Shown here piece after piece: positions 4,860 to 60,465 of a DNA stretch of 64,000 bases (positions are counted from its first letter, which is position 1; the number at the start of each line of letters is the position of its first letter). The position numbers and the translations under genes were made by a program. The DNA lies in NCBI GenBank assembly GCA_044225365.1, contig JBGAIQ010000005.1, positions 21,287 through 85,286 on the forward strand, read 5' to 3'. Below the pieces are notes generated by a model. The model saw nothing but the letters and a program-made list of their open reading frames with translations, had not been told where the DNA came from and ran no database searches. The DNA is from Planctomycetota bacterium (GTDB taxonomy: Bacteria > Planctomycetota > B15-G4 > JADJEK01).

Positions 4860-6020
4860 TCATCCGCTCATGGCCTGAGCGATCGAAGCCAAGGCCGACA
4901 CGATGGCGTCGACGTCGTCCTCGGTCGACGTCATCCCGAACGACGCGCGCACGGCGCCGCCCTCGAACGTCCCGATCGCGCGATGCGCGAGCGGCGCGCA
5001 GTGCAGACCGGCGCGCACCTCGATCCCGAATGCACTGTCGAGGACGAGTGCGAGCTCGTGCGGATCGAGCCCGGGAATGCGAAGCGGGAATACGGCCTCG
5101 CGCGCGCGCATCGACGTCGGCCCGAAGACCTCGACCCTTCCGACGGCACGAATCCGCTCGAGGAAGCGCTCGCCGAGCATCGCCTTGTGCGCGGCGATGG
5201 CGTCGATCCCGCGCGCGAGCAACACGTCGAGAGCCGCGTCGAGACCGGCGATCCCAGGCGTGTTCGCCGATCCCGATTCGTGGCGATCGGGCCAGCTCGA
5301 CGGCTGACGATCGTCCTCCGAATGCGTGCCCGTTCCGCCTTCGCGCACGGGCGCGAGATCGACGTGCGGCGCGACCCACAATGCTCCCGTTCCGAGCGGT
5401 CCGAGCAGCCCTTTGTGACCCGCGAATGCGACGAGATCGGCGCCGAGTTCGGCGGGATCCACGGCGCGTGTCCCCATGGTCTGCGCCGCGTCGACGAGCA
5501 CGAGCGCACCGACTCGATGCGCGAGCGCGGCGGCTTCGGCGACCGGTTGGATCGCGCCCGTCACGTTCGATGCGTGTTGGATCGCGAGCAGTCTCGTGCC
5601 CGGCACGAGCGCCGTGCGCAACTCCGAGAGTTGCACGACGCCCTCCGCATCCGCAGCGACTCGCACGACGACGCCGCCTCGAGTTTCGTGCGAGCGCAGC
5701 GGACGAAGCACCGAGTTGTGCTCCATCACCGTCGTGACCACGCGATCCCCAGGCTTCAAGATGCCGAGGAAGGCGAGATGCAACGCGTCCGTCGCGTTGA
5801 GCGTGAAGACGATCCGGTTGGGATCCTCGACGTGCAGCAGACGCGCGAGTTTGCCGCGAGCCTCCGCAACCACTCGCCCAGCCTCCACGGCGCGAGCCGA
5901 TGCCCCGCGCCCGGCCGCAACCCCCACATCGGTCAGATACCGGGTCATCGCCCGCGTGACCTCCTCCGGCTTCGGGAAGGATGTCGCGGCATGGTCGAGA
6001 TAACGTCGTGGCACGATCAT
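4860..6020 (-). CDS. Class V aminotransferase, cysteine desulfurase family (NifS/SufS/CsdA-like)
   Basis: 386 aa with an ATG start. The PLP-lysine motif AGHKGLLGPLGTG is present, and overall length and layout fit the class V aminotransferase fold. No suf or isc partner genes are adjacent. Confidence 0.75.
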   Translation of the reverse strand: MIVPRRYLDHAATSFPKPEEVTRAMTRYLTDVGVAAGRGASARAVEAGRVVAEARGKLARLLHVEDPNRIVFTLNATDALHLAFLGILKPGDRVVTTVMEHNSVLRPLRSHETRGGVVVRVAADAEGVVQLSELRTALVPGTRLLAIQHASNVTGAIQPVAEAAALAHRVGALVLVDAAQTMGTRAVDPAELGADLVAFAGHKGLLGPLGTGALWVAPHVDLAPVREGGTGTHSEDDRQPSSWPDRHESGSANTPGIAGLDAALDVLLARGIDAIAAHKAMLGERFLERIRAVGRVEVFGPTSMRAREAVFPLRIPGLDPHELALVLDSAFGIEVRAGLHCAPLAHRAIGTFEGGAVRASFGMTSTEDDVDAIVSALASIAQAMSG

Positions 6021-6184
6021 CGCGTTCCGGACTCCTGTCGTTCCGGTGACCTTCCAGTCGCAGGCGAACCTTCGAAATCGCAGCGCGCGAACTCGATGGC
6101 CGCCCTATACTCTTGCGAATCGCGATGACACCGGCCAGTCATCGGTCCCCACATTTCGCCATCGTATCCAACAGGACCCCACCC

Positions 6185-7693
6185 ATGTTGAAGTTCGCCC
6201 TCGGCCTCGCCGCGTCCATCGCGGCGCTCGCTTCTCCCACTGCCTCGGCCGCAGATTTCACTCTCTCGAAGGTCGGCGGCGGCATGTCGCAGCTCACCAC
6301 AATGAAGCTCGCCGGGGATCCGAATCTCCACTACATCCTCCTGTTCTCGATCAACGAAGCGACGACGCCGATCAATGCGCAGGTCACGCTCGAGATCCCG
6401 CTCACGTTCCTGAACCTCGCCGTCGCGATTCCCGGGTTTGCGGGAACCTTGAACGGTGCGGGCACCGCGAGCGCGTCGTTCATCATCCCGAACGATCCCG
6501 TCATCGATCCACTCACGATCTCCTTCCAGGCGATCGGCGGCGTGACCGGGATCGGGCAGGCCACGAACCTCGTGCGCGTCACTCCCGCCGCGCCGGGCAC
6601 CTTCGAAGCCACGCTCACCGACGCCACGCTGCCGGTCGCCGGCGGCGCGGTGGTCGAGAAGAGCGATTCGAGCGTCCTCCTCGTCGGCGGATCGGGACCG
6701 GTCTTCCAGAGCTACAACGGCAATCGCGAAGAGTTCGCGCTCGGCGGACCGGCGTTCGGCGTCGGTTTCCTCGGACAGTCGACCGCGCTCGCCGACGGCC
6801 GCATCCTCTTCACGGGCGGCATCGGCGCCGATGGGCAGCCGACGGATGCCGCGGCCATCTTCGATCCTGTCGCGCTCACCACGACGAATCTCACGATGAA
6901 CGCGAAGCGCGCGGGCCACGGCGCGTCGCTGATGAATGACGGTCGAATCCTGATCACCGGCGGCTTCTCCACGTTCACGCTGACCGACCTGCTCACGTTC
7001 CTCCAGGGCGTGCAAGGCTCGACCGAGATCTTCGATCCCAACACCAACGCGTTCTCGAACGGCCCTACGCTGCTCGAACCGCGCGCGCTCCATACCTCGA
7101 CGACGCTGACCAACGGACGTGTCCTCATCGCGGGCGGCCTCACGATCCTGCCAATCGTCAACATCCCGACGGTGTCGAACACGGCCTATGCGTACAACCC
7201 GTCGAGCAACTCCTTCGGCCTTCCGGCGTTCATGAACGGCGGTCGCATGCTGCAGACGGCCGTTCCGCTCACCAATGGCAAGGTCCTCCTCGTCGGTGGG
7301 CTCAACGTCGACTTCAGCCAGGTGCTCGCGACAGGTGACCTCACGCAGCTCGTCGTCGGCACATTGTCCGACTGCCAATTGTTCACCGTCGGATTCCTCG
7401 GACTCGGCACGTTCCAGACCGTCTCCGGAATGAGTTCGCCCCGTGCGGGCGCCGGCGTCGCGCAGTTGCCGAACGGCGAAGCACTGATCTGCGGCGGCTT
7501 CACTCTCGATCTGTCGGCGGCGACGATCGGAGTCACTCCGCTCGCCACGGCGGATCGCTACGCGAGCTCCGGAATCACCACCACGGGTTCGATGCTGAAC
7601 GCGCGGTCGTTCCCCGTCCTCGAGCCGCTCAACGACGGAACGGTCCTCGTCGTCGGCGGCGGTCCGCTCGGCAGCGAGATCTATCAGCCGTGA
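6185..7693 (+). CDS. Secreted Kelch-repeat beta-propeller protein
   Basis: Starts at an internal ATG of track ORF 6113..7693, giving the signal peptide MLKFALGLAASIAALASPTASA. Six repeats of GR[IV]L[IF]xGG / GKVLLVGG are typical of Kelch blades. Confidence 0.65.
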   Translation: MLKFALGLAASIAALASPTASAADFTLSKVGGGMSQLTTMKLAGDPNLHYILLFSINEATTPINAQVTLEIPLTFLNLAVAIPGFAGTLNGAGTASASFIIPNDPVIDPLTISFQAIGGVTGIGQATNLVRVTPAAPGTFEATLTDATLPVAGGAVVEKSDSSVLLVGGSGPVFQSYNGNREEFALGGPAFGVGFLGQSTALADGRILFTGGIGADGQPTDAAAIFDPVALTTTNLTMNAKRAGHGASLMNDGRILITGGFSTFTLTDLLTFLQGVQGSTEIFDPNTNAFSNGPTLLEPRALHTSTTLTNGRVLIAGGLTILPIVNIPTVSNTAYAYNPSSNSFGLPAFMNGGRMLQTAVPLTNGKVLLVGGLNVDFSQVLATGDLTQLVVGTLSDCQLFTVGFLGLGTFQTVSGMSSPRAGAGVAQLPNGEALICGGFTLDLSAATIGVTPLATADRYASSGITTTGSMLNARSFPVLEPLNDGTVLVVGGGPLGSEIYQP

Positions 7694-7722
7694 CCCCGCC
7701 CTGATTCCAATGGTGCGCAGGG

Positions 7723-7762
7723 AAGGAGCGGAGCGACGCCATCGAGCAACGCTCCGCTCCTT
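7723..7762. terminator. Hairpin (13-bp stem AAGGAGCGGAGCG/CGCTCCGCTCCTT, about 14-nt loop) between the Kelch gene and the BMC-P gene
   Basis: Read directly. It sits about 30 nt after the Kelch stop and is followed by TTCCATT. Confidence 0.35.
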
Positions 7763-7809
7763 CCATTGACGAGTGGCCAACGGCGGTGCCCCCCTCTACG
7801 ATCGGCGCC

Positions 7810-8127
7810 ATGTTCCTCGCCACCGTCATCGGGACCGTCGTCACGCCGATCCAGCATCCGTTCTACGACGGCAAGAAACTCATGCTCGTGAGGGCCGAGC
7901 GGCCGGACGATGGCAAGCCTTCGCACGAAGGCGTCGTTCTCGCGGTCGACCGCGTGGGCGCCGGGATCGGCGAGAAGGTCCTCGTCCTGAAAGAAGGCAG
8001 CAGCGCACGCTCTCTGTTCGAGAATGACCGCGCTCCGGTGCGAACGGTGATCGTCGGAATCGTCGACGAGGTCGAGGTCGAAGGCGAGAGGACGTTCTTC
8101 GCCGGGGATGGAGGCACAGCGCGATGA
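7810..8127 (+). CDS. Bacterial microcompartment vertex protein (BMC-P; EutN/CcmL/PduN family, PF03319-like)
   Basis: From the ATG the protein reads MFLATVIGTVV...GKKLMLV...DGKP...LAVDRVGAGIGEKVLVLKEGSSAR...PVRTVIVGIVDEV. This matches the EutN/PduN/CcmL pattern along its whole length of about 105 aa. The stop overlaps the aldolase ATG (ATGA). Confidence 0.8.
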   Translation: MFLATVIGTVVTPIQHPFYDGKKLMLVRAERPDDGKPSHEGVVLAVDRVGAGIGEKVLVLKEGSSARSLFENDRAPVRTVIVGIVDEVEVEGERTFFAGDGGTAR

Positions 8128-8849
8128 CGGGTACGGACGAGCGCTCGCTCCAAACGCTGAAGCGGCAGATCACGGAGATCGCGCGGTTGTGTTGGGACCG
8201 CGGCTACATCGGCGCGATCGACGGCAACATCTCCGTGAAGCTCGACGATGGGACTCTGCTCATCACGCCGTCGGGCACGATCAAGTTCCTCATCGAACCC
8301 GACATGATCGTGAGGACCGACGCGCAGGGCACGCCGCTCTCCGGCGGACGCGCCTCGACCGAGATCAAGATGCACGTCGCGTGCTACCAAGAGCGCCCCG
8401 ACATCCGCGCCGTGGTGCATGCGCACCCGCCCACCGCCGTCGCATTCTCGCTCGCGGGCCTCGACATGATGAAGGCCCTGATCCCCGAACTCATCGTCAC
8501 GCTCGGCGCGATCCCGACCGCACCGTACGGGACCCCCGGCACCGAAGAACTGCCCGATTCCGTGCGCGAGTACGTGCGTTGCTCCGACGCGATCATCATG
8601 GAGCGGCACGGGGCGCTCTGCCTCGGCAAGGATCTCCTCGACGCCTACAAGAAGCTGGAACAGATCGAGCACAACGCGAAGATCATCTACATGGCGCATA
8701 CGCTCGGTCGCGTTCGCGAATTGCCGCAACCGGAAGTCGAGAAACTCCTCGCGACGCGTTCGCAGCTCGGCATCAAGACGACGAACGTGTACTGCAATCA
8801 GTGCGGGCACGAAGTGAACGGCGGCACGTCCGAGCCGCATCGACCGTGA
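8124..8849 (+). CDS. Class II aldolase/adducin family protein (L-fuculose-/rhamnulose-1-phosphate aldolase-like) with a C-terminal extension of about 40 aa
   Basis: 241 aa with an ATG start. The sequence IGAIDGNISVKL...ITPSG...HVACYQERPDIRAVVHAHPP has the metal-binding His pattern of FucA/AraD-type class II aldolases. Translational coupling with the BMC-P gene is indicated by the ATGA overlap. Confidence 0.85.
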   Translation: MTGTDERSLQTLKRQITEIARLCWDRGYIGAIDGNISVKLDDGTLLITPSGTIKFLIEPDMIVRTDAQGTPLSGGRASTEIKMHVACYQERPDIRAVVHAHPPTAVAFSLAGLDMMKALIPELIVTLGAIPTAPYGTPGTEELPDSVREYVRCSDAIIMERHGALCLGKDLLDAYKKLEQIEHNAKIIYMAHTLGRVRELPQPEVEKLLATRSQLGIKTTNVYCNQCGHEVNGGTSEPHRP

Positions 8850-8873
8850 GTCGGACCACTCCGAAGGGCGGCT

Positions 8874-9998
8874 GTGCGGGATCCTGACCTACCGACGGTC
8901 GCGTTCGACGCGAGCTGCACCGCGAAGCGCGAGCGCACCGGCGTCGGTCGCTATGCGGCGTGTCTACTCGACGCGCTGTTCGCCCGCACGGACGATTCGC
9001 GATACACCTTGGGCTACCGCCTCTCGCGCTGGCGACGCGCCTCGTATCGCTACCGAGCGACGAGTTCGCGAGTCCGCGAGCGCTGGTTCATCGACCATCT
9101 CGCTCAAGCGATGCTCGGACCGCACGACGTCTTCCATGGGCTCGACGCGCGGCTCCCTCGCGGTTGGACCGGCCCGATGGTGGCGACACTGCACGACGTC
9201 GGCGCCGTCGAACGCGCGGAGATCGCGAGCGCGGGGTTCCGCGACAAGAAACTCGCCGCGTACTCCGATCTCGCGCAACGCGCGACCCGGATCATCTGCG
9301 TTTCCGATGCGACCCGCGAAGGGTTTCGCGCTCTCTTCCCGATCCCGGCCGATCGCTTCGCGGTGATCCATCACGGGCTCGAGCCGCGGTTCCGTCCCCC
9401 CAAGGCCGACGAACTGGCCCGACTCATCACGAAGCACCGCCTCCCGGCGCGCTACTTGTTGTTCGTGGGATTGATCTCGTCGCGCAAGAACCTCGTGCGC
9501 GCGGTCGAGGCGTTCTCACGGATCGCGGCCGACGACGCTTCGATCCACTTCGTCCTGGCCGGCGGCAACGCCCACGGATTCGACGACGTAGGGCACGCGA
9601 TCGCGTCGAGCGAGGCCCGTGATCGGATCCGGTTGTTCGGCTACGTCGATGACGCCGACCTCCCCGCGCTGTACGGCGCCGCTCGAGCGCTCATCTTCCC
9701 GGGGCTCGCGGAGGGCTTCGGCATGCCGATGCTCGAGGCGATGGCGTGCGGCACGCCCGTCCTCGCCGCGGATCGGCCGGTCACGCACGAGGTCGTCGGC
9801 GACGCGGCGCTCCTCGCGAACGGCGAAGACGAGGACTCGCTCGCGAATGCGATGAACGCGATCCTTTGCGACGAGGGTCTGCGAACGCGCCTCGTCGAGC
9901 GGGGTCTCGCGCGCGCCTCACGATTCAGTTGGGCGAATGCTGCGGAGGCCACTCTCGCCGTGTATCGTGCCGCCGTCGGACGACCCCAATTGGCTTGA
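8874..9998 (+). CDS. Glycosyltransferase family 4 (GT-B fold)
   Basis: 374 aa with a GTG start in the track. The C-terminal half carries the GT4 signature ...LFPGLAEGFGMPMLEAMACGTPVLAA... Confidence 0.75.
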   Translation: MRDPDLPTVAFDASCTAKRERTGVGRYAACLLDALFARTDDSRYTLGYRLSRWRRASYRYRATSSRVRERWFIDHLAQAMLGPHDVFHGLDARLPRGWTGPMVATLHDVGAVERAEIASAGFRDKKLAAYSDLAQRATRIICVSDATREGFRALFPIPADRFAVIHHGLEPRFRPPKADELARLITKHRLPARYLLFVGLISSRKNLVRAVEAFSRIAADDASIHFVLAGGNAHGFDDVGHAIASSEARDRIRLFGYVDDADLPALYGAARALIFPGLAEGFGMPMLEAMACGTPVLAADRPVTHEVVGDAALLANGEDEDSLANAMNAILCDEGLRTRLVERGLARASRFSWANAAEATLAVYRAAVGRPQLA

Positions 9999-10013
9999 GG
10001 CGGGCTTGAGGCC

Positions 10014-12227
10014 ATGCGATCCACGATCATGAAACGGGTTCCGAACCCGCGCGTCCTCGTCCTTTGTCTGCCGCTCGTGACGGGCTGCAATGGACCCGAA
10101 CGATCCGGCGTCGAGGAAGTCTTCAACTTCACGCCGCTCGCCTACTACGAAACGAGTACCTCTCCGCCCGGCTACTCCGTCGACGTGCTGTGGCCGCTCA
10201 TCAACGCGTATCGCTCGGGCGATGCGCGCGGCAGCCGGTTCTTCCCGATCTACTCCGAGGATTGCGTCGACGCGGACCACTCCGCGATGCGACTGTTCCT
10301 CCTCTACGGCAGATCGCAAGACGGCGCGACGCACAGCCATCAACTCTGGCCAATGTACTCGTACACCCAATCGGCGGAGGACAAGTGGAGCTCGATGGTC
10401 CTCTTGCTCGCGGGCTTCTCGCGGGACGGCAGCGAGCACAATCGTTTCTTCTTCCCGTTCTACTTCGATCGCTCGGCGAAGGATGAGAACTGGTTCACGC
10501 TCTGGCCGTTCTACGGCACATCGAGCCGGGAACTCGCGAGCGGCGCGCAACTACGCCACGATCACGTCGCCTGGCCGCTCTTCCGCTTCGAGAGCTCGAG
10601 CGACGACCAGACCTCGGGCCAGCATCTCCTCTCGCTGCACTTCCTCGCCGGCCTCTACGACGCGTACCGACAACCGATCGAGTCGCTGGATTCCGAGGGC
10701 CGATCGAAATCCGCGGGAAGTCGTTCGAGCAGCGTCATCGGCTGGATCCTGGGACCGGTATTCAGCCTCTTCCACGCCTACGACGATTCCGTCGAGCAGG
10801 TAAGCGGCTTCACGCTGCTCTCGCTCTTCAACAAGCGAGTCTCCCGCCATTTCGACATGGGCAGCGACAACGACTCGGATGAGAAGGTCGATCTCGCGCT
10901 CGTCTCGAGTCGCACGGAGATGCACGAGAACGGCGAGTATCACCACAGCCAGCTCTTCCCGATCTACAGCAACACCTCACAGCCGGGCGGCGCGACCGAG
11001 ACCTGGGTCATCACTCCGCTCTACCGACACGCCGCCGATCCGCAGTTGAACAAGAGCGAGCACGACGTGCTCTTCGGGCTCTGGCACTACGGCGTCGAGG
11101 GCGACGGCGCTACCCGCGCCACGAGCTGGCGCCTCCTGCCGCTCCTCTGGTTCACGACCCGCCCCGACTCCGAGACGTCGCTCGTCCTGCCGTTCTACTA
11201 CCACATCCAGGACAAGGACTCCGACTACCTCCACGTCATCCCGTTCTACGGGAAGAACACGGAGGCCGGCGGCAAGAAGACGACGACGTTCGTCCTCACC
11301 CCGCTCTACATCGGCACCCACGACGAACGCACCCGCCTCGAACAAACCGACGTCCTCTTCCCGCTCATCTCCTGGCAGCACTCGAACAACGGGTCACTGA
11401 GCCGATTCACGCCGCTGTGGTACTACGAAGAAGCCGGCGCCCGCACGCACTGGAACTCCTTGCTCCTCGTCGACCGCACGACGTCGGAGATCGAGAGCTC
11501 GACGCTCGTCTACCCGCTGTGGGAGGATCGCACGGTCCGCGGCGAAGGACGCCGCCGCTCCCTGTTTCCGATCTTCGACTTCGTCCGTCACCTGCAGGAC
11601 GACGCACCGAAGGGCGACGAGTTCGCGACGCTCTTCCCACTCGCGAGCTTCCGCACCGACGGCGAATCGAGCAACCGCTGGATCTTCCCGTTCTACTTCT
11701 GGAGCGACGACGCCGCGGGCCACAGCAACAAGATGATCTGGCCGTTCTTCGGCACGAAGCGCGACTCCGACCACGTGACGCGATCGGTGATCTGGCCCTT
11801 CTTCTTCTGGGGCAGCGATTCGACCGGTGATTGGTCCGAGACCGGAATCCTCTATCCACTGTTCGCCTCGTCGCACGATCGTCGCGACGCGACGACCCGC
11901 GATCACAGCCACCTCTTCCCCCTCTACTGGTCGACCTCGGGCGAGAACGAGACCGGACCGTGGAGCTTCGACTGGGTCCTGTGGCCGCTGTGGCAACACG
12001 AGCGCAAGGCGAACGGGGAGATCTGCGCGCACTCGCTGTTCAAACTCGGCGAATACGAACTCTCACCCGACGGCACGACGGAGGAGTTCTCGATCCTCCA
12101 CGCGGTCTACCGCTACCACCGCGAAGGCGACGACGTGCTGCGGAGCGTGCCGTTCTTGTTCCGTTACGAACGGGAGAAGGGCGAGAGCACGCTGTACCTG
12201 TTCCACTTCATTCCGATCGGGCTTTGA
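10014..12227 (+). CDS. Lipoprotein of unknown function built from about 25 short aromatic repeats ([LFIV][WF]P[LFI][YFW])
   Basis: 737 aa. The signal peptide plus lipobox is ...LVLCLPLVTGC. Examples of the repeat core are LWPLI, FFPIY, LWPMY, FPFYF, LWPFY, AWPLF, LFPIY, IPFYG, LFPLI, IWPFF and LWPLW, recurring about every 20-30 aa. Confidence 0.6.
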   Translation: MRSTIMKRVPNPRVLVLCLPLVTGCNGPERSGVEEVFNFTPLAYYETSTSPPGYSVDVLWPLINAYRSGDARGSRFFPIYSEDCVDADHSAMRLFLLYGRSQDGATHSHQLWPMYSYTQSAEDKWSSMVLLLAGFSRDGSEHNRFFFPFYFDRSAKDENWFTLWPFYGTSSRELASGAQLRHDHVAWPLFRFESSSDDQTSGQHLLSLHFLAGLYDAYRQPIESLDSEGRSKSAGSRSSSVIGWILGPVFSLFHAYDDSVEQVSGFTLLSLFNKRVSRHFDMGSDNDSDEKVDLALVSSRTEMHENGEYHHSQLFPIYSNTSQPGGATETWVITPLYRHAADPQLNKSEHDVLFGLWHYGVEGDGATRATSWRLLPLLWFTTRPDSETSLVLPFYYHIQDKDSDYLHVIPFYGKNTEAGGKKTTTFVLTPLYIGTHDERTRLEQTDVLFPLISWQHSNNGSLSRFTPLWYYEEAGARTHWNSLLLVDRTTSEIESSTLVYPLWEDRTVRGEGRRRSLFPIFDFVRHLQDDAPKGDEFATLFPLASFRTDGESSNRWIFPFYFWSDDAAGHSNKMIWPFFGTKRDSDHVTRSVIWPFFFWGSDSTGDWSETGILYPLFASSHDRRDATTRDHSHLFPLYWSTSGENETGPWSFDWVLWPLWQHERKANGEICAHSLFKLGEYELSPDGTTEEFSILHAVYRYHREGDDVLRSVPFLFRYEREKGESTLYLFHFIPIGL

Positions 12228-12250
12228 GCGAGGCGAACGCGGGAGAAGAG

Positions 12251-12512
12251 CGTACGTCGGTCTCGGGCGCGGTCTCGTACATCGGGCTCGTACATCGGTC
12301 TCGGGCGCGGTCTCGGTCTCGGGCTCGGTCTCGGTCTCGGTCTCGTACGTCGTACATCGGTCTCGGTCTCGGTCTCGTACGTCGGTCTCGGTCTCGTACG
12401 TCGTACATCGGTCTCGGTCTCGCACGTCGTGCTCGTACATCGGTCTCGGTCTCGTACGTCGGGCTCGGGCGCGGACGTCGAACGTGGTTCGACGTACATC
12501 GGACTTGGGCGC
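12251..12512. repeat. Hexanucleotide tandem array of about 260 bp (units GGTCTC, GGGCTC/GGGCGC, GTACGT, GTACAT), strictly 6-nt periodic
   Basis: Read directly: ...cgtacgtcggtctcgggcgcggtctcgtacatcgggctcgtacatcggtctcgg... The array fills the convergent gap between the lipoprotein stop (12227) and the VOC gene stop (12514). Confidence 0.8.
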
Positions 12513-12513
12513 G

Positions 12514-12900
12514 TCACTGGCCCGCTGGGGGTTGCCACAATTCGAGCTTGTTGCCGTCGGGATCGGTGACCCAGCCGAATTTGCCATACTCGGATTCTTC
12601 GACCTTGTCCGCGACGTCGCAACCTTCGGCGCGGAGTGCGGCCAAGACGGCGTGGAGATCCTCGACGCGGTAGTTGATCATGAAGCTCGCTTCACTCGGC
12701 GCGAAGTACTTCGTGTCGTGCGGGAACGGGCTCCACACCGTCGTCCCCGTTCCCGTCGGGTTCTCCGGCCCGGCCCACTTGAACGCGACGCCACCCCACG
12801 CCTCGACGTTCATTCCGAGGTGAACGCGGTACCACTCCCCGAGCGCCTTCGGATCCTTGGACTTGAAGAACACGCCACCGATCCCAACGACACGCTTCAT
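12514..12900 (-). CDS. VOC family protein (glyoxalase/bleomycin-resistance/dioxygenase fold)
   Basis: 128 aa with an ATG start. The N-terminus MKRVVGIGGVFFKSKDPKALGEWY and the C-terminal ...GWVTDPDGNKLELWQP are typical of small VOC proteins. Confidence 0.7.
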   Translation of the reverse strand: MKRVVGIGGVFFKSKDPKALGEWYRVHLGMNVEAWGGVAFKWAGPENPTGTGTTVWSPFPHDTKYFAPSEASFMINYRVEDLHAVLAALRAEGCDVADKVEESEYGKFGWVTDPDGNKLELWQPPAGQ

Positions 12901-12982
12901 CTCGAATTCCTACACGAAGTGAACCTGCGCTCGAATCCTACACGACCGCCACGTCCTCGACCGTCCCAGGCGAAGCGAAGAG

Positions 12983-13390
12983 TCAGCGATCGCTCGCAGT
13001 ACGCCTCAGCAACAAACGCGTGCGGGGTGTCGCCACTTCGTCGAAGTAGAACGCGAGCGCGCCTGGCAAACAGCACACGATGGACGCGAACGAGTGACGC
13101 TCGCATTCGTCGATCGCGTCTTCGAGCGGAAGGTCGCGACCATCCAGCAAGGGCGAATCGGACATGATGTGAACCTGGGCCGGTGCTCCCGCGCTTCGTA
13201 GCACGTCCAACGCTTCGTTGGACGATCTCGCGGGATGTACGAATCGAACATCCCAATCGACGAAATGGTTGAGAACGGACCTCGCGCGATCACGTCCCCT
13301 CGCATTCCCAAACAGTGCGATCAACCGTTCGCGCTTCTTCTTCTCGACGAAGGCTCGCAGCGTCGCTGCTTCGGCTGGATGAATGGCCAT
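12983..13390 (-). CDS. Hypothetical protein
   Basis: 135 aa with an ATG start. I recognise no motif. It is in the same orientation as the VOC gene and 83 nt upstream of it. Confidence 0.45.
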   Translation of the reverse strand: MAIHPAEAATLRAFVEKKKRERLIALFGNARGRDRARSVLNHFVDWDVRFVHPARSSNEALDVLRSAGAPAQVHIMSDSPLLDGRDLPLEDAIDECERHSFASIVCCLPGALAFYFDEVATPRTRLLLRRTASDR

Positions 13391-13399
13391 CTTCTCTCA

Positions 13400-13492
13400 C
13401 ACGTCCGACGTACGACTACGAGTCCCACGTACGAGACCGATCTAATAGACCGGGACTCACGTACGAAACCGAGTCCGAGTCCGACGTACGCC
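13400..13492. repeat. Degenerate inverted copy of the hexanucleotide array (units GAGACC, GAGTCC, ACGTAC, which are reverse complements of GGTCTC, GGACTC, GTACGT)
   Basis: Read directly: acgtccgacgtacgactacgagtcccacgtacgagaccgatct...gtacgaaaccgagtccgagtccgacgtacg. It lies immediately upstream of the hypothetical gene's start. Confidence 0.6.
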
Positions 13493-13506
13493 CCTCTCCC
13501 GTCCTG

Positions 13507-14934
13507 TCAGACCCCTCGGATCCACTCCGTCACCAAATCCATCACGCTCTCCTCCATGGTGGTCTCGATGACGGCGTATTCGCTCGGTGCCCCCGTCGTC
13601 GACTTTTGGAACAGGTGATTCAGATCCGGCAGTATCCTCGCAGTGGTGTGCGTGTTGCCGCCCTTCCTCAGAGCGGCTTCGATCGCGGGGATGTTCATGG
13701 TCGCGGGGACCTGAAGATCCTTCGCGCCGTTGAGTGCCAGGACGGGGCATTTCACTTGGACGAGGTATTCTTGCGGATCGATCGCGAAGAAAGCCTTGAA
13801 CCAAGGTGAGTTGATCTCGCGGGCGGTCTGCGCGGCGTCCTCGTAGATCCACTTCTCGCCGGGCGGGCTCTTCTCGAGGCCGCGCTTCAATAGTTCGTCG
13901 AGCTTCGCGCCGAGTTCGGGACCGACGGGAACGGAAATGGCGAGGTCGATCATGGCGGCGCTGAGCTTCGCTTCGATCTCCACCTGGTCCTTCGGCTTGC
14001 CGTTCGCGAGGGAGATGAGGCGACCCTGTTCGATCGAGATCTCGCGCCCGGACACGCCGGTGCCCGCGAGCAGGACGATGAATCCGACGTCCGCGCTCTT
14101 CGTCGCACAGATCGGCGCGATGAGACCACCCTCGCTGTGACCGATGAGGCCGATGCGCTTCGTGTCGATCTCGGGCCGCGACTTCAGGAACGCGACGCCC
14201 CCGAGTGCGTCGTCCGCGAAATCGAAGCTGGTCGAGGATTCGAATCGCCCCGTCGAGCCGCCGATCCCGCGATCGTCGGCGCGCAGCACGGCGATGCCGT
14301 GACGCGCGAGATGATCCGCGAGGACGAGGAAAGGTTTGTGCCCGAGCAGGCTCTCGTCGCGGTCCTGTTGACCCGAGCCCGTGATGAGGACGACCGCCGG
14401 GAAGGGCGGCTTCATGCCTTCGCCGTTCGGAATGAAGAGCGTGCCACCGAGGGAGATCGAGTCGTTCAGACTGTCGTAGTCGACGTCCTCGCTCTGATAC
14501 GGGAACGGCGGCTTCGGAGTCTGCGGGCGCGCGAGGTCGGCCAGTCGCTCCGTTCGCTTCAGCTCAAGAGGTACGGCGGCGCCACCCTGCTTGAACTCAC
14601 CCGCGATCTTCGATCCCGCACCGTCGAGCTGACCGGAATACTCGATGCCGAACTTGCGCACGACGAAGCGCACGCTCGCGGCGTCGCACGTCGTCTCGTC
14701 GACCGGAATCGCCTTCAGTCCCTGATCGATGCTGTCCATCGTCGACTGTAACGCACCGTTCGTCCCGCGCGTGACGAGGAAGCCGATGCGAAGCGTCATC
14801 GACTGTACCGTGATGCGCCCTTCCCAGGCTCCGACGATCTCCGCGCGTCGAAGGGCAAGGCCCGATGCATCCCGTAGCAGCACCGATGCGAACAGAGCGA
14901 CCAGAAGAGCGACGTGGGAGCGAACGGTATGCAT
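13507..14934 (-). CDS. Secreted alpha/beta hydrolase (serine hydrolase; S9 / X-Pro dipeptidyl-peptidase-like)
   Basis: Starts at an internal ATG of track ORF 13507..14979, giving the signal peptide MHTVRSHVALLVALFASVLL. The nucleophile elbow GHSEGG is present, together with the usual downstream Asp and His regions. Confidence 0.7.
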   Translation of the reverse strand: MHTVRSHVALLVALFASVLLRDASGLALRRAEIVGAWEGRITVQSMTLRIGFLVTRGTNGALQSTMDSIDQGLKAIPVDETTCDAASVRFVVRKFGIEYSGQLDGAGSKIAGEFKQGGAAVPLELKRTERLADLARPQTPKPPFPYQSEDVDYDSLNDSISLGGTLFIPNGEGMKPPFPAVVLITGSGQQDRDESLLGHKPFLVLADHLARHGIAVLRADDRGIGGSTGRFESSTSFDFADDALGGVAFLKSRPEIDTKRIGLIGHSEGGLIAPICATKSADVGFIVLLAGTGVSGREISIEQGRLISLANGKPKDQVEIEAKLSAAMIDLAISVPVGPELGAKLDELLKRGLEKSPPGEKWIYEDAAQTAREINSPWFKAFFAIDPQEYLVQVKCPVLALNGAKDLQVPATMNIPAIEAALRKGGNTHTTARILPDLNHLFQKSTTGAPSEYAVIETTMEESVMDLVTEWIRGV

Positions 14935-15088
14935 GGAGAGTTCCGCTTCGATTCGTCTTTCGTTCCCCGGGGTCGTCACCGCGCCGACTGCGCAGCCTCC
15001 CGAGTGCTGGGGGGAACGCCAGCATCCTTCTCGGAGTTCCCGGATTCAACCCCTCGCAACCGCACCCTCCATCCGTTGAAATGACCCC

Positions 15089-18000
15089 ATGGCGCCAGCG
15101 ATCCATACTGCGCATCCATTCTTCGACAGCCTGATGCGTCGGCCGGTTTCGGCCTTCATGTCGCTCTGCCTCATCTTCCTGCTCGGCTTCGTCGCCTATC
15201 GGCGCATTCCGCTCACGCTGATGCCGTCGGGACTCTCCGACCCGACGATGCAGATCGAGATTCCGTACTCGAACGCCTCGCCCGAGGAGGTCTACGAGCA
15301 CGTGACGAAACCGATCGAGGACGCGGTCCGCCAGCTCTCGGGAATCGAACACGTCGAGTCGACCTCCAGCGCCGGTCGCGGACGTGTGAGCGTCTCGTTC
15401 CACGGCGACGTCGACCTCGACGCCGCGTACGCCGACTTGAAGGATCGCCTCGAACGCGTCCGCGCCACGCTGCCCGAGGGCTCCGACAAGCCCGTGATCT
15501 TTCGCTGGAACAGCGACGTTGCACTCCCGATCTTCTGGATCGGCGTCCAATTCGAACCCTCGCTCGAGGATCCATACCACCTCGTCGAGGAGGTTCTGCA
15601 GAAGCGAATCGAATCCGTCGATGGCGTCGCGCAGGTCGGTCTCGAGGGTATGGTGCAGGACACCGTGCGGGTCTTCGTCGCGCCCGACAAGCTGCGAGCG
15701 CACGGCATCACGCTCTACGAAGTCGTCGACAAACTGCGCCGCGACAACTTCGTGTTGCCTTCGGGACACATCGACGACGCCGGCCGCCAGTTCCTCCTGC
15801 GGGTCGACACCACGTACTCCGATCTCGAGGAGGTCCGCAACTACCCGCTCAAGCCCGGTCTCTACGTGAAGGACGTCGCCGACGTCCGCTTCGCCCGGGC
15901 GTACCGCGACACGGTGAGCCGCGTCAATGGCAAGCGCGCGCTCACGATGACGATCAGCAAGGAGTCCGACAAGAACACCGTCGCCGTGTGTGCGGCGGTA
16001 CGCAGCATGCTCGACGAGCTGCGGCACGACGATCGACTCAAAGGCTTCGAGTACTCGATCTACTTCGACCAATCGAAGCTGATCGTCGGAGCGCTCGACG
16101 ACCTCAAGTCGTCGCTCCTGTTCGGAGCCTTCTTCTCCGTGCTCGTGCTCTTCGTCTTCGTGCGTCGCGTCGGCATCACCGCGCTCGTCTCGCTCGCGAT
16201 CCCGATCTCGCTGCTCTCCGCGGTCATCGGGCTCTACTTCACGGGCTTCACGCTCAACATCGTGTCGCTCGCCGGCATCACGCTCGCCACCGGCATGCTG
16301 GTCGACGATTCGATCGTGGTCACGGAGAACGTGTTGCGCCTGCGCGCCGAGGGCCGCAACCCGCTCCATGCCGCGGCGGTCGGCACGGGCCAGGTCGCGA
16401 TCGCGATCATCCTGTCGACCCTGACGTCGATCGTCGTCTTCGCGCCCCTCGTCTTCATGTCGGGCGGCAAGTCGACTCGCGCGCTGCTCGCCGAACTCGG
16501 CGCCCCCATCACCTACTCGCTTCTCGCTTCGCTCTTCGTCGCGCTCTTCCTCCTGCCCATCACGATCGTGATGTTCTCGCGCTTCGAGAAGAAGACCGAG
16601 AACGTGTTCGACCTGCCGACCGACACCCGATTCCATCGGGCGTACCGGCGCGTCCTGGCGCTCGCCGTCAAGAACCGCTTCGTCACCGCCGCCGCGATCC
16701 TCGCCATGCTCCAGCTCGGGGCCGTGGCGTTCAAGCACGTCGACATGAACTTCGAGGATCGCAAGGAGGGCGGCGGGCGCCTGCGCATCACGATCGATCT
16801 CCCGGATCGCTACACGATCGAAGAAGCCTCCGACACCTTCGCCGAGTACGAGAAGTTCCTCGTCGCGCGCCGCAAGGAGGACAAGGTCCGCGACGTGAGC
16901 TCGCGATTCACGCGCCAGGAAGGGCGACTGCTGCTCTGGTTCGAGGACGGCGCTCCGAAGGGCTGGGAGAAGACTCTGTCGAAGACGCTGGCCGAGGTCA
17001 TGCCGAAGGTCCCCGGAGTTCGACTCTCCTACGGCTTCGAACAGGGCGGCGAGCAGGGCAGCATGAGGATCGAGCTGCAAGGTCGCGACAGCGTCACGCT
17101 CGGCCGTCTGTCGCGAGACGTCATCCGCGAACTCGAAAAGCTCCCTGAACTCTCGGACGTGAAGACCGACACCGCCGATGGCCTCGACGAACTCCACGTG
17201 GCGTTCGACCGCGAGGAGACGCTGCGCTACGGGGTCACCCAGGAAGTGCTGCTCGGCCTCATCTCGTGGGGTATCGGCAGCCAGCAGCTCTCGCCGTTCA
17301 AGACGGCGACCCGTGAGATCCCGATGCTCGTCGAGTACGAAGATCCCGACGTCGGAGATCTCTCGTACCTGAAATCGCTCGAGGTGCCCGTCGGCGCGGG
17401 TGGCAACGTCACGCTGGGATCCCTCGGTCATTTCGAGATCGAGAAGAACTACGGCTCGATCCGCCGCCGCGACGGGATCGTGAATCTGCCGATCAGCGCC
17501 CAGAGCTACGACTCGAACGGGTATCGCGTGAATCGACGAGTCGCCGAAGTGCTCGACGCGTTCCCGTTTCCCGAGGGCTACACCTGGACGAATCGAGGAA
17601 AGCAGCAGGATTTCGAAGAGAGCAAGTCGGAGATCTCGCTCGCGTTCCTCGTGGGCGTCGTGTTCGTGTTCCTGCTCATGGGAATGCTGTTCGAGTCGTT
17701 CATCCTGCCCTTCGCCGTGATGCTGACGATTCCGCTCGCCGTCGTCGGCGGCGCCTTCGCGCTCGTACTCACCAAGACTCCGCTCGACGTCACGGGCATG
17801 CTCGCATTCGTGCTGCTCGCCGGAATCGTCGCGAAGAACGGGATCGTGCTCGTCGATCGAATCCAGCAGCTTCGGCACGCAGGAATCGCGCGATTCGATG
17901 CCGTGCTCGACGGCTGCTGCGAGCGACTGCGCCCTGTCATCATGACCGCGCTCACGACGATCTTCGGCCTGCTTCCGATGGCGATGCCCGAGCTGTTCGC

Positions 18001-22717: not shown

Positions 22718-23052
22718 GTCCCGTCGCGTCGATGTTCCGTGAAAAGACGATTACATCGTCCGTTTTTCTCGGAGCCGACTCCGCTCGATTCCCCGATTCC
22801 TGACGAGATCATGCGGAGGGATTCCGCGACGCCACGATCGAGAATTGGGAATCTCGCGCGCCCCGATTCGACCCTTTCCACTCGCCTGCGTCGAGTCGAG
22901 CCCATCGCTCATGTCTTTCGGGCAGGAGTTCCCGAAAACGCTCGATCGCGAGCCACCGCCGCGAGCCTGAGGCGTTTCGCACGGGATTTGCGGCCGAAGG
23001 ACTCGACCTGTCCCGCCCTTGTCATCTTCCACCGGTCAAGGAATCGCTCGTG

Positions 23053-25464
23053 ATGCAACCCGACAACAGGCCTGATCCGATTCCGTCTCGACGCGCGCGC
23101 TGGCTCCGCGGTGCGATCGAGTCCGTTCCGATCCTCGCTGGTGCAGGCTTCCTGCTCGCTGCGATCCACTCGAGTACGGCGGCGGCCGATCCGCCGGCTC
23201 CGCCGGTCGCGGCCACCTCGACGCGGGTCATTGCGTGGAACGATCTCGGCATGCACTGCATGGATCCCGGCTACTCCGTCTTCGCGCTCCTGCCGCCCTT
23301 CAACGACTTCAAGTCGGCGCTCATCGTGAACGGCAAGCTGCAGAAGGCTGGCAATCCGTATCAGGTCTCGTATCGCGGGACTGCGTCGGCCACGGGCCAG
23401 TTGAACACGAGTTCGATCGGCAAGACCGACTTCTGGGATCACGTCCAGTCGATCTTCGGTGTGGCGCTGCCGCCCGACCACGGACTGGCGGGTCACGACA
23501 TGCCGGGTCCGTTGAACACGCCGCAGCCGATGAGCTTCGACGGGACGTGGAACTGGTTCGCCGCCGACGGCGTCCCGATCACTCCGTACGACGACACGAC
23601 GAAGGCGAACAACACGTATCCGCTGCTCGAAGCCATCGCGAAGGACGCCAACGGCACGACGATCGCCTCGACGTCGAACGTCGTTCCCGTCTCCGACGAG
23701 ATGGACTGCAGCCATTGCCACGCATCGGCCGCCAGTCCCTACGCAAAGCCGCTGAAGGGATGGGTCTTCGCGAGCAACACGATCGAGGACTATCGCCTCA
23801 ACATCCTGCGTCTGCATGACGAGAAGCAGGCGGGCAACGCGGCGTTCGCGAGTGCTCTCGCCGCGAAGGGCATGAATCCGCTCGGACTCGAGGCGACGGT
23901 GACGCAGGACGGTCATCCGATGCTGTGCGCCGCGTGTCATGCGAGCAATGCGTTGCCGGGCTCCGGCATCGCCGGGATCTCCCGCCTCACGTCGGCGCTC
24001 CACCTGAAGCACGCGAACGTCGTCGACACGACGGGCAAGACGCTCGATTCCGACACCAATCGCAGCGCCTGCTACGAGTGTCACCCTGGCTCCGTGACGC
24101 GCTGCCTGCGCGGCGCGATGGGCAGCGCCGTGGCAAAGGACGGCACCCTCGAGATGCAGTGCCAGAACTGCCACGGATCGATGAGCAAGGTTGGTGATCC
24201 GGCGCGACTCGGCTGGCTCGACGAACCGAGCTGCCAGCAGTGCCATACCGGTACCGCAACGCAGAACTCCGGGCAGATCCGATTCACCTCGGTCTACGAC
24301 GCCAACGGGAATCCGCACGTTCCGGCGAACCTCACCTTCGCGACCGACGCGAACGTGCCGGCCACGGGCTTCGATCTCTATCGCTTCTCCGACGGCCACG
24401 GCTCGCTGCAGTGCGAGGCGTGCCACGGCTCGACGCACGCGGAGTACCCGTCGTCGGAGCCGAAGGACAATCAGCAGAGCATCGCGGCGCAAGGACACAC
24501 CGGCATGCTCGTCGAGTGCCAGAGCTGTCACGGCACGGTCCCGTTCACCGTGAACGGCGGACCGCACGGCATGCACTCGATCGGACAATCCTGGGTGAAC
24601 CAGCACGGCGACATCGCCGAGACGCAGGGCACTTCGCAGTGCCGCACCTGCCATGGCACGGACTATCGCGGAACGGTCCTCTCCTATGCGCAGGACAACC
24701 GAACGTTCTCGACGGTATTCGGCACCAAGAGCTTCTTCAATGGTGCGCAGGTCGGCTGCTTCCACTGCCACAACGGCCCGGGCAGTGCAGATCCCATCAA
24801 CAATGCGGCACCTGTCGTCACCAACAAGAATGTCGCGACCCCGAACGACACGACGCTCACGGTGAACCTCGCCGGCACCGACGCCAACAACGATCCGCTC
24901 ACCTATCGCATCGTCGAGCAGCCCTCGCACGGTACGGTCGGGATCGCGGGCGCCGTGGCGACCTACTTCCCCGAGCCAGGTTTCGTGGGCACGACGACCT
25001 TCACGTTCGCCGCGTGGGACAACAAGACGAACTCCAACCTTGGAACCGTCACCGTCACGTCGAACGGTCCGAGCTGCCTCGGCGCCTCGAAGCGTTACGG
25101 CTTCGGTTGCGCGGGCACGGGCGGCGTCCTGCCGCAGCTCGACGTCACGGGCTGCCCGACACCGGGCAGCACGATCACCGTCGCGCTCACGAAGGGACTG
25201 CCAGGCGCGACTTCGATCGTCTTCGTCGGCGCAGGTCAGGGCGCGACAACGCTCCCCGCTGGATGCGTCCTGCGCGTGTTCCCGCTCCTGCCGTTCTCCT
25301 TCGCGATCCCCTTGAGCTCGGGAGTCGGCGGCGGAGCGTTCTCCCTCCCCGTGACGATTCCGCCCGCTACCACGGGCACTGCGACCCTCCAAGCGTTCGT
25401 CGTCGACCCGGGAGTGTGGCAAGGCTTCTCGGCGACGAACGGCGTCCAAGTGGACATCCACTGA
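23053..25464 (+). CDS. Secreted nonaheme c-type cytochrome with a C-terminal Ig/cadherin-like domain and conserved C-terminal module
   Basis: Nine CxxCH motifs are present (CSHCH, CAACH, CYECH, CQNCH, CQQCH, CEACH, CQSCH, CRTCH, CFHCH). The signal peptide is ...ILAGAGFLLAAIHSSTAAA. TYRIVEQPSHGTV is an Ig-like stretch. The last roughly 115 aa are shared with three other secreted proteins in the window. Confidence 0.75.
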   Translation: MQPDNRPDPIPSRRARWLRGAIESVPILAGAGFLLAAIHSSTAAADPPAPPVAATSTRVIAWNDLGMHCMDPGYSVFALLPPFNDFKSALIVNGKLQKAGNPYQVSYRGTASATGQLNTSSIGKTDFWDHVQSIFGVALPPDHGLAGHDMPGPLNTPQPMSFDGTWNWFAADGVPITPYDDTTKANNTYPLLEAIAKDANGTTIASTSNVVPVSDEMDCSHCHASAASPYAKPLKGWVFASNTIEDYRLNILRLHDEKQAGNAAFASALAAKGMNPLGLEATVTQDGHPMLCAACHASNALPGSGIAGISRLTSALHLKHANVVDTTGKTLDSDTNRSACYECHPGSVTRCLRGAMGSAVAKDGTLEMQCQNCHGSMSKVGDPARLGWLDEPSCQQCHTGTATQNSGQIRFTSVYDANGNPHVPANLTFATDANVPATGFDLYRFSDGHGSLQCEACHGSTHAEYPSSEPKDNQQSIAAQGHTGMLVECQSCHGTVPFTVNGGPHGMHSIGQSWVNQHGDIAETQGTSQCRTCHGTDYRGTVLSYAQDNRTFSTVFGTKSFFNGAQVGCFHCHNGPGSADPINNAAPVVTNKNVATPNDTTLTVNLAGTDANNDPLTYRIVEQPSHGTVGIAGAVATYFPEPGFVGTTTFTFAAWDNKTNSNLGTVTVTSNGPSCLGASKRYGFGCAGTGGVLPQLDVTGCPTPGSTITVALTKGLPGATSIVFVGAGQGATTLPAGCVLRVFPLLPFSFAIPLSSGVGGGAFSLPVTIPPATTGTATLQAFVVDPGVWQGFSATNGVQVDIH

Positions 25465-59969: not shown

Positions 59970-59985
59970 GAGCTTCGCATCGCGA

Positions 59986-60465
59986 TCAGCCAGACTTCTC
60001 CTCCGATTTGCCGCACGCCGCGCAGAGGCCGAACAGCTTGAGCGTGTGCGAGAGCACTCGGAAGCCATGACGCTTCGCCGCCTGCTCCTGATGCGCCTCG
60101 ATCTCGGGATCCGAGAATTCCACGATGTCGCCGCATCGCAGACAGATCATGTGATCGTGGTGCTCGCGACCGTGGACCGGCTCGTAGAACTTGGCCTCGC
60201 GAGCGCCGATCTCCAACTCGTCGAGGAAGTTCGAGTCGACGAGCAACTTCAGCGTGCGATAGACCGTCGCCTTGCTGACGTACATGCGCTCGCGCTTCAG
60301 GACTTGATAGAGATCCTCGGCGGAGAAGTGCTTCGGCATCGAGAACGCGCGCTTCACGATCTTGAGCCGCTGCGCGGTGTGCTTCAGCTTGTTCTCGCGG
60401 AGGAACCGCTCCAGCAGTTCGTCGACCTTGGCGGCCTTCGCGCGTTTGGTCTCGCTCTGGATCAC
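59986..60465 (-). CDS. fur: Fur family transcriptional regulator (ferric/zinc uptake regulator-like)
   Basis: 159 aa. The GTG start overlaps the purD stop (GTGA). The DNA-binding helix ...KATVYRTLKLL and the metal sites HHDHMICLRCG and CAACG are present. Confidence 0.8.
   Translation of the reverse strand: MIQSETKRAKAAKVDELLERFLRENKLKHTAQRLKIVKRAFSMPKHFSAEDLYQVLKRERMYVSKATVYRTLKLLVDSNFLDELEIGAREAKFYEPVHGREHHDHMICLRCGDIVEFSDPEIEAHQEQAAKRHGFRVLSHTLKLFGLCAACGKSEEKSG

Follow-up and report, generated by a model that had tools for sequence, protein, structure and literature searches.

A single BMC-P vertex protein gene coupled to a class II aldolase gene in Planctomycetota, a plausible reduced form of a triplet satellite operon

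Two overlapping genes on contig JBGAIQ010000005.1 encode a vertex protein of bacterial microcompartments (BMCs) and an aldolase, and they do so in a stretch of 64,000 nucleotides (nt) that we call the window, whose positions on the forward strand provide all the coordinates given below and whose G+C content is 65.8%. The first gene (7810..8127, +) codes for a BMC-P protein of the EutN/CcmL family with 105 amino acids (aa), and the second (8124..8849, +) codes for a 241-aa class II, FucA-like protein, predicted to be zinc dependent, whose conserved C-terminal tail terminates in CxxCG. The two reading frames share an ATGA (8124..8127), in which the aldolase ATG (8124-8126) overlaps the BMC-P TGA (8125-8127), as read directly from the junction, GGAGGcacagcgcgATGAcg. 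In addition, the 3′ end of the BMC-P gene contains the GGAGG Shine-Dalgarno motif of the aldolase gene (8110..8114, +), located 9 nt ahead of the ATG from which the aldolase starts. The placement of the aldolase ribosome-binding site within the upstream gene, together with the overlap, indicates that the two proteins are translated from one message, in agreement with the translational coupling proposed in the initial annotation. Overlaps of 4 nt recur in related loci (ATGA in L014, GTGA in L012, and TTGA in L005), and motifs resembling GGAGG or GGGAGG precede the aldolase start in L010, L012, and L014. The coupling is nevertheless not obligatory, since an 18-bp gap separates the two genes in L003. 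Regarding the BMC-P start codon, the public gene call begins at GTG 7786 and yields 113 aa (P0001; open reading frame [ORF] 7786/7810..8127). However, the Met encoded by ATG 7810 is the uniform first residue of a 28-ortholog alignment (28/28), making this ATG, which had also been chosen initially, the better start.

The BMC-P protein matches PF03319 (EutN_CcmL) along the entire profile (positions 1-83 of 83), with an E value of 1.5e-21 and 77.1 bits versus a gathering cutoff of 25, as expected for the full-length member of the EutN/CcmL/PduN family that it had been suggested to be. Its best sequence match in the PDB is 5V74, the intact shell of Haliangium ochraceum (HO; E value, 1.6e-14), followed by EutN and CcmL. 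An AlphaFold2 model computed from the aligned orthologs (predicted local distance difference test score [pLDDT], 85.5) was compared with the PDB using Foldseek and matched EutN (2HD3), CcmL (4N8X and 2QW7), and the HO shell (5V74), with template modeling (TM) scores of 0.77 to 0.88 and E values of about 1e-8. The motifs of the family, DxxGAGxGE (DRVGAGxGE in this protein) and GSSAR, are retained. The profile match, the fold, and the orthology described below point to a putative role as a pentamer that caps the vertices of a shell.

The downstream protein matches PF00596 (Aldolase_II; E value, 2.6e-45; 155 bits) and has intact FucA-type residues, in accordance with the family first assigned to it. 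In alignments with the fuculose-phosphate aldolases 6BTD and 4C24, residues S78-T79-E80, H99-x-H101, and H162-G occupy the positions of the SSE, HxH, and HG motifs, and the catalytic Glu (E80) and the three zinc-binding His (H99, H101, and H162) are invariant in 34 homologs. Because of this alignment and invariance, the protein is very probably an active zinc aldolase. We take these four residues to be the counterparts of E73, H92, H94, and H155 in Escherichia coli FucA. Among solved structures, the best relatives are 6VOP and 6VOQ (described as “aldolase”), followed by several L-fuculose-phosphate aldolases. None of the NCBIfam equivalogs for FucA, RhaD, AraD, MtnB, or OtnC scored above its cutoff: the best was an OtnC-like model (141 bits versus 250), while the FucA models gave 81 to 105 bits versus cutoffs of 250 to 400.

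To place the pair among its relatives, we collected gene contexts from locus look-ups, one genome-collection scan, and one metagenome scan. More than 30 independent contigs show the BMC-P/aldolase adjacency, which is therefore not due to chance. It comes in two forms. In the triplet form, found in about 18 distinct contigs (L014, L024-L028, L030, and L034-L044), three BMC-P genes (P1-P2-P3) precede the aldolase gene. In the reduced form, found in about 14 distinct contigs (the window, L003, L005, L010, L012, L013, L016-L019, L022, L023, L031, and L032), a single BMC-P gene and the aldolase gene lie within a conserved order of genes for a Kelch protein, BMC-P, the aldolase, a GT4 glycosyltransferase, an unknown protein of roughly 700 aa, and an RND pump. 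The reduced-form relatives are labeled as Planctomycetota or as uncultured Phycisphaeraceae or Phycisphaerales metagenome-assembled genomes (MAGs); the best match to the window in the genome collection is 73%.

The window BMC-P is 59% identical to P3 of the L014 triplet, versus 42% for P1 and 31% for P2, which on sequence grounds identifies it as the P3 ortholog; P3, the member of the triplet next to the aldolase gene, belongs to the green clade of BMC-P proteins. In protein searches, its orthologs form a tight clade (57 to 87% identity), and the next-closest BMC-P (about 55%) is the third pentamer gene in complete SPU-like BMC loci (L007-L009), which carry RpiB/DeoC, BMC-Tdp, BMC-H, BMC-T, and aldehyde dehydrogenase (AldDh) genes. 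The aldolase gives a matching picture, with 73 to 86% identity within the clade followed by a sharp fall to 55%. Its nearest outgroup (54 to 55% identity; P0147) is encoded directly after P1-P2-P3, with a 4-nt overlap in L014.

Since the window BMC-P is orthologous to P3, we favor, with moderate confidence, the interpretation that the locus is a reduced form of a satellite operon composed of a BMC-P triplet and a class II aldolase (MIC3/HO type), with the main locus elsewhere. Satellite loci are remote loci in which shell genes occur, either alone or together with enzymes (Sutter et al. 2021, PMC8217296), and the triplet-plus-aldolase loci found here fit the description of the MIC3 satellite. 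P1 and P2 would have been lost from the locus in a Phycisphaerae-affiliated lineage of Planctomycetota, which kept P3 and the aldolase, while homology and the catalogue of Sutter et al. (2021) suggest that the facet genes and AldDh are encoded elsewhere in the genome. In such a system, BMC-P would cap the vertices of a shell whose BMC-H/BMC-T facets and aldehyde dehydrogenase are supplied from other loci. The aldolase, as signature enzyme, would cleave a ketose-1-phosphate-like substrate into dihydroxyacetone phosphate and an aldehyde, and the latter would then be oxidized inside the shell. Of the two possibilities raised in the initial annotation, a satellite of a main locus has thus gained support from homology, since P1-P2-P3-aldolase operons that fit the MIC3 satellite (L014 and others) make up the nearest outgroup loci, whereas a minimal BMC module is unsupported, as a shell cannot be built from a single BMC-P and an aldolase.

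We searched the window for further shell and core genes by tblastn, using seven BMC-H/BMC-T, two BMC AldDh, and P1/P2-type BMC-P queries; the BMC-H/BMC-T queries comprised PduA, CcmK2, and EutM as well as proteins taken from L007 and L009. No significant BMC-H, BMC-T, or AldDh match was obtained in the 64 kb (the best BMC-H match had an E value of 0.16), nor did the P1 and P2 queries reveal a second BMC-P. Similarly, PF00936, PF00171, PF06130, and PF04909 were absent from Pfam scans of about 40 large ORFs of the window, in which sigma-54 activators, an RND pump, an ABC transporter, FG-GAP, Kelch, kinases, PurD, FtsY, NusB, and other families were found. The early remark that no other shell genes lie nearby therefore holds across the whole window. 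The triplet-form loci are isolated as well: their flanks contain no BMC-H, BMC-T, or AldDh gene, with no BMC-H within 10 kb, while the control loci L007-L009 and L029 do give BMC-H/BMC-T/AldDh matches in the same flank scans. Because the triplet-type relatives are equally isolated, the missing local shell genes say little about the presence of a main locus.

The BMC-P gene is under purifying selection comparable to that acting on the aldolase gene. Pairwise ratios of nonsynonymous to synonymous substitutions (dN/dS), calculated by the NG86 method within the reduced clade at dS values of 0.6 to 1.3, which are near saturation, range from 0.16 to 0.41 for BMC-P and from 0.14 to 0.36 for the aldolase. 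About 14 contigs, diverged to 57 to 87% identity, carry an uninterrupted BMC-P reading frame, and 26 columns are invariant across 28 orthologs. Moreover, the ratio of BMC-P to aldolase divergence is about 1.3 in the reduced clade and 0.9 to 1.4 in triplet pairs of similar depth; by this comparison with the triplet lineages, there is no clear relaxation of constraint after the loss of P1 and P2. The reduced clade is marked by one clear diagnostic substitution, K61, at a position occupied by D or E in 16 of the 17 remaining P3 proteins, while the other diagnostic sites are G41 (within an indel) and F96. A clade-specific functional shift caused by K61 was considered and is not supported, as the equivalent K also occurs in P3 of the complete BMC locus L029. 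Overall, we see no positive sign of a changed BMC-P function.

The aldolase's C-terminal end was inspected with regard to cargo targeting. In an AlphaFold2 model, the helix formed by residues 202-214, which includes PEVEKLL, aligns with FucA’s own C-terminal helix, and the tail that follows (219-241) is predicted to be disordered. PEVEKLL was therefore not taken as an encapsulation peptide, being part of the canonical FucA helix, with the true extension disordered. The tail (window 8778-8846) bears an NVxCxxCG motif that is kept in the reduced clade and in L014, L026, L027, and L030; the aldolases of L024, L025, and L028 have a different C-terminal tail, NTLAQDLLARLACS, in its place. Two cysteines, C153 and C227, do not vary among 34 homologs, and a metal or disulfide site is possible.

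The pair is flanked, as initially annotated and as confirmed with Pfam, by a Kelch protein gene and a GT4 gene. The upstream gene (6185..7693, +) encodes a secreted Kelch-repeat protein with matches to Pfam Kelch families and the signal peptide MLKFALGLAASIAALASPTASA. Its stop codon is separated from the BMC-P start by 116 bp, which contain a perfect 15-bp GC-rich inverted repeat (7721..7764, +; arms 7721-7735 and 7750-7764). The predicted fold of 7694-7815 has an energy of −53.6 kcal/mol (z, −2.8). No T-run follows this hairpin, while the analogous hairpin of L003 is followed by the T-run TTTGTTTTCT. The corresponding Kelch/BMC-P gaps of other relatives (25 bp in L010 and L018, 39 bp in L022, and 40 bp in L005) are too short for such a hairpin. 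In the window, the hairpin probably marks the end of the upstream (Kelch) transcription unit.

Downstream, the GT4 glycosyltransferase gene (8874..9998, +; PF00534/PF13692) and a gene for a 737-aa protein with the lipobox LVTGC (10014..12227, +; no Pfam or NCBIfam match) follow the aldolase gene closely. Only 24 bp (8850-8873) separate the aldolase and GT4 genes, and 15 bp lie between the GT4 and 737-aa protein genes, with no hairpin in either gap, and a consensus scan of 5800-15200 revealed no sigma-70-like promoter and no convincing terminator. Given these short gaps without hairpin or terminator, 7810-12227 may form one transcription unit. In all reduced-form loci long enough to show this region, an ortholog of the 737-aa protein (33 to 44% identity) is encoded directly after GT4. 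The GT4 gene directly follows the aldolase gene not only in the reduced clade but also in 10 triplet loci (e.g., L024), so that this adjacency is not peculiar to the reduced clade. Nevertheless, triplet-plus-aldolase loci without GT4 exist (L014, L026, L027, L030, and L039), which argues that the BMC-P/aldolase pair is the older and more stable association.

Some features of these neighbors deserve mention in their own right. The 737-aa protein (10014-12227) contains dozens of WP[LFM][FY] and FP[LIF]Y repeats. The GT4 protein resembles MshA, BshA, and MSMEG_0565, yet it remains below all cutoffs (window 8874-9998; L024 8661-12369; L012 17169-19409). In triplet-type loci such as L024, a large PIG-L protein (an MshB/BshB-like deacetylase) comes after GT4, an arrangement that resembles pathways of N-acetylglucosamine transfer followed by deacetylation and that is closely packed downstream of the BMC-P and aldolase genes. 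Upstream of the triplet satellites lies a block encoding a Ser/Thr kinase, a ClpX-like AAA_2 ATPase, and a SurA-like peptidyl-prolyl isomerase (L024 1954-7044; L014 2008-8964). In the reduced clade, Kelch neighbors are 53 to 80% identical in L003-L022 and L031-L033, with the Kelch gene missing in L023; since Kelch takes the place of the triplet upstream block, the rearrangement breakpoint is placed immediately upstream of P3.

Elsewhere in the window, an imperfect tandem array of a TCGGTC-like 6-mer with nested 32- and 77-bp periods (70 to 87% matches) occupies 12251-12480, between the gene for the 737-aa protein and a convergent glyoxalase-family gene (12514-12900, −), and it yields long spurious Arg/Ser-rich ORFs on both strands. 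A 1,738-aa fusion protein (54852-60068, −) combines a Ser/Thr kinase, a STAND/TPR region, GAF, a sigma-54 activator AAA+ domain, and a Fis-type helix-turn-helix, and a second, ordinary sigma-54 activator is encoded at 1369-2832 (−). An 804-aa protein (23050-25464, +) has matches to multiheme cytochromes (MtrC/MtrF-like, c7/c3) and to bacterial Ig/cadherin-like domains.

Several observations weigh against the interpretation of the locus as a reduced satellite. P1 and P2 always accompany the third BMC-P in triplet-type BMCs, yet they are missing here, and K61 is fixed in the reduced clade, versus D or E in nearly all other P3 proteins. On the enzyme side, the AlphaFold2 model and the alignments reveal no encapsulation-peptide-like amphipathic helix on the aldolase, its tail (219-241) included. 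Furthermore, the apparent cotranscription with GT4 and a lipoprotein gene is unexpected for organelle genes, and BMC-H, BMC-T, AldDh, PTAC, and PF04909 were not found in the 64-kb window or in the flanks of the reduced-form loci (about 14 contigs).

Alternatively, the lineage could have lost all of its facet proteins along with P1 and P2, leaving BMC-P to act with the aldolase without a shell, for example, by regulating it or by serving as its scaffold or pentameric partner. The disappearance of P1 and P2 and the lack of any shell or core-enzyme gene in the 64 kb and in the reduced-form flanks would agree with such a scenario, although the triplet satellites of genomes catalogued with a main locus are equally without nearby BMC-H. 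Also in its favor, the two genes have remained adjacent and coupled throughout the clade under purifying selection; at the same time, BMC-P displays no relaxation or rate shift relative to the triplet lineages. Likewise, K61 could be read as a clade-specific charge switch, but the occurrence of K61 in P3 of the complete BMC locus L029 speaks against this. Our literature search also turned up no shell-independent BMC-P function, and we consider this explanation unlikely, while giving it some weight.

A further explanation, which we find improbable, takes the downstream genes as its starting point. The aldolase could have been recruited as a cytosolic sugar-phosphate enzyme to an envelope or glycoconjugate cluster (GT4, lipoprotein, and RND, with PIG-L in relatives), with BMC-P retained because the translation signals of the aldolase lie in its 3′ end. 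The 24-bp aldolase-GT4 gap without hairpin and the 15 bp that separate GT4 from the 737-aa protein gene would suit an operon of this kind, as would the position of GT4 behind the aldolase, which the reduced clade shares with 10 triplet loci, and its succession by a PIG-L deacetylase in L024, reminiscent of an MshA/MshB-like pairing. However, triplet-plus-aldolase loci that do without GT4 exist (the five listed above), and the 18-bp gap of L003 implies that the coupling is dispensable. Moreover, if BMC-P served only to carry a ribosome-binding site, it would not stay full length at a dN/dS of 0.16 to 0.41 with its motifs intact. Finally, it is very improbable that the pair is a decaying remnant, without function today, of a BMC locus that was lost, an option mentioned in the initial annotation for which the lack of nearby shell genes and the shrinkage of the triplet to one gene could be invoked, because about 14 contigs preserve the reading frames, dN/dS values are far less than 1 and resemble those of the aldolase, 26 columns are invariant in 28 orthologs, and a recent transfer, which might otherwise account for this preservation, is countered by the near-saturated BMC-P dS of 0.8 to 1.3.

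The reduced satellite that we favor bears on two general questions, namely, the function of MIC3, HO, and related aldolase-associated BMCs and the reason why many BMCs carry three pentamer paralogs. The reduced clade represents a natural deletion experiment, in which P1 and P2 are gone and P3 and the aldolase are still coupled and constrained. If these genomes keep facet genes, a single green-type pentamer would suffice, and P3 and the aldolase would constitute the indispensable core of the satellite. If they are devoid of facet genes, BMC-P would work outside a shell, which would be new for the field.

Class II aldolases of the PF00596 family are signature enzymes in several other BMC types, including PVM, PVM-like, GRM5, ACI, MUF2/3, and MIC4 (PMC8217296), and the systems with which the locus was first compared, namely, the planctomycete fucose/rhamnose BMC (PVM) and that of Haliangium, are indeed close, even if the nearest catalogued system proved to be MIC3. 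In the fucose/rhamnose BMCs of the PVM and PVM-like types (Axen 2014; Sutter 2021), the aldehyde-producing signature enzyme is likewise a class II aldolase (PvmN, PF00596), and these BMCs occur in Planctomycetes, including Phycisphaeraceae MAGs, and also in Verrucomicrobia. [quoted passage not shown] Membership in the PVM group was therefore rejected, the more so as the nearest relatives of both proteins lie outside PVM loci. The ACI (Acidobacteria), MUF2, and MIC4 systems also combine a PF00596 aldolase with a BMC-P triplet, and the ACI aldolase is closest to those of HO and MIC3 (PMC8217296). However, the aldolases of ACI, MUF2, and MIC4 carry a C-terminal encapsulation peptide and are encoded in or near the main BMC-H locus, in other phyla.

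The HO type I satellite, which consists of two BMC-P genes and an aldolase gene (PMC8217296), is more similar, in that it associates BMC-P with a PF00596 aldolase, and the HO pentamer of 5V74 is the best PDB match of the window BMC-P. The HO satellite is remote from the main shell locus, and our pair lies in 64 kb in which no other shell genes were found. It differs from the window in having two BMC-P genes rather than one and in its distribution, mostly in Deltaproteobacteria/Myxococcales, whereas our aldolase clade groups with planctomycete sequences.

The closest counterpart is the satellite of MIC3, a type known from 11 loci, all in Planctomycetes, every member of which has a satellite with a BMC-P triplet and a PF00596 aldolase (Sutter 2021, Nat Commun 12:3809, Suppl. 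Data 2; PMC8217296). The main MIC3 locus lies elsewhere and comprises AldDh, a PF04909 amidohydrolase, two more BMC-P, two BMC-H, BMC-Ts, and BMC-Tdp, with no encapsulation peptides detectable (PMC8217296). The satellite triplet is made up of green, grey, and orange BMC-P clades. Grey and orange members always co-occur in triplets, while the third (green, blue, or purple) member is often the sole pentamer (PMC8217296). A satellite of BMC-P and aldolase is hence already catalogued, and the single-pentamer form with the present context is not described in Sutter 2021; no further publication about MIC3 or about BMC-P of Phycisphaerae turned up in our literature search. The window shares with the MIC3 satellite a planctomycete host (judging from the labels of the relatives), a PF00596 aldolase encoded directly after a green-clade BMC-P, and the absence of nearby BMC-H genes, and the 4-nt overlap is common to the window and L014-type loci. 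No encapsulation peptide is apparent in the alignments and the model of the window aldolase. It departs from the MIC3 satellite in carrying the P3/green gene only, in place of the triplet, and in a new context, with Kelch upstream and GT4, lipoprotein, and RND genes downstream.

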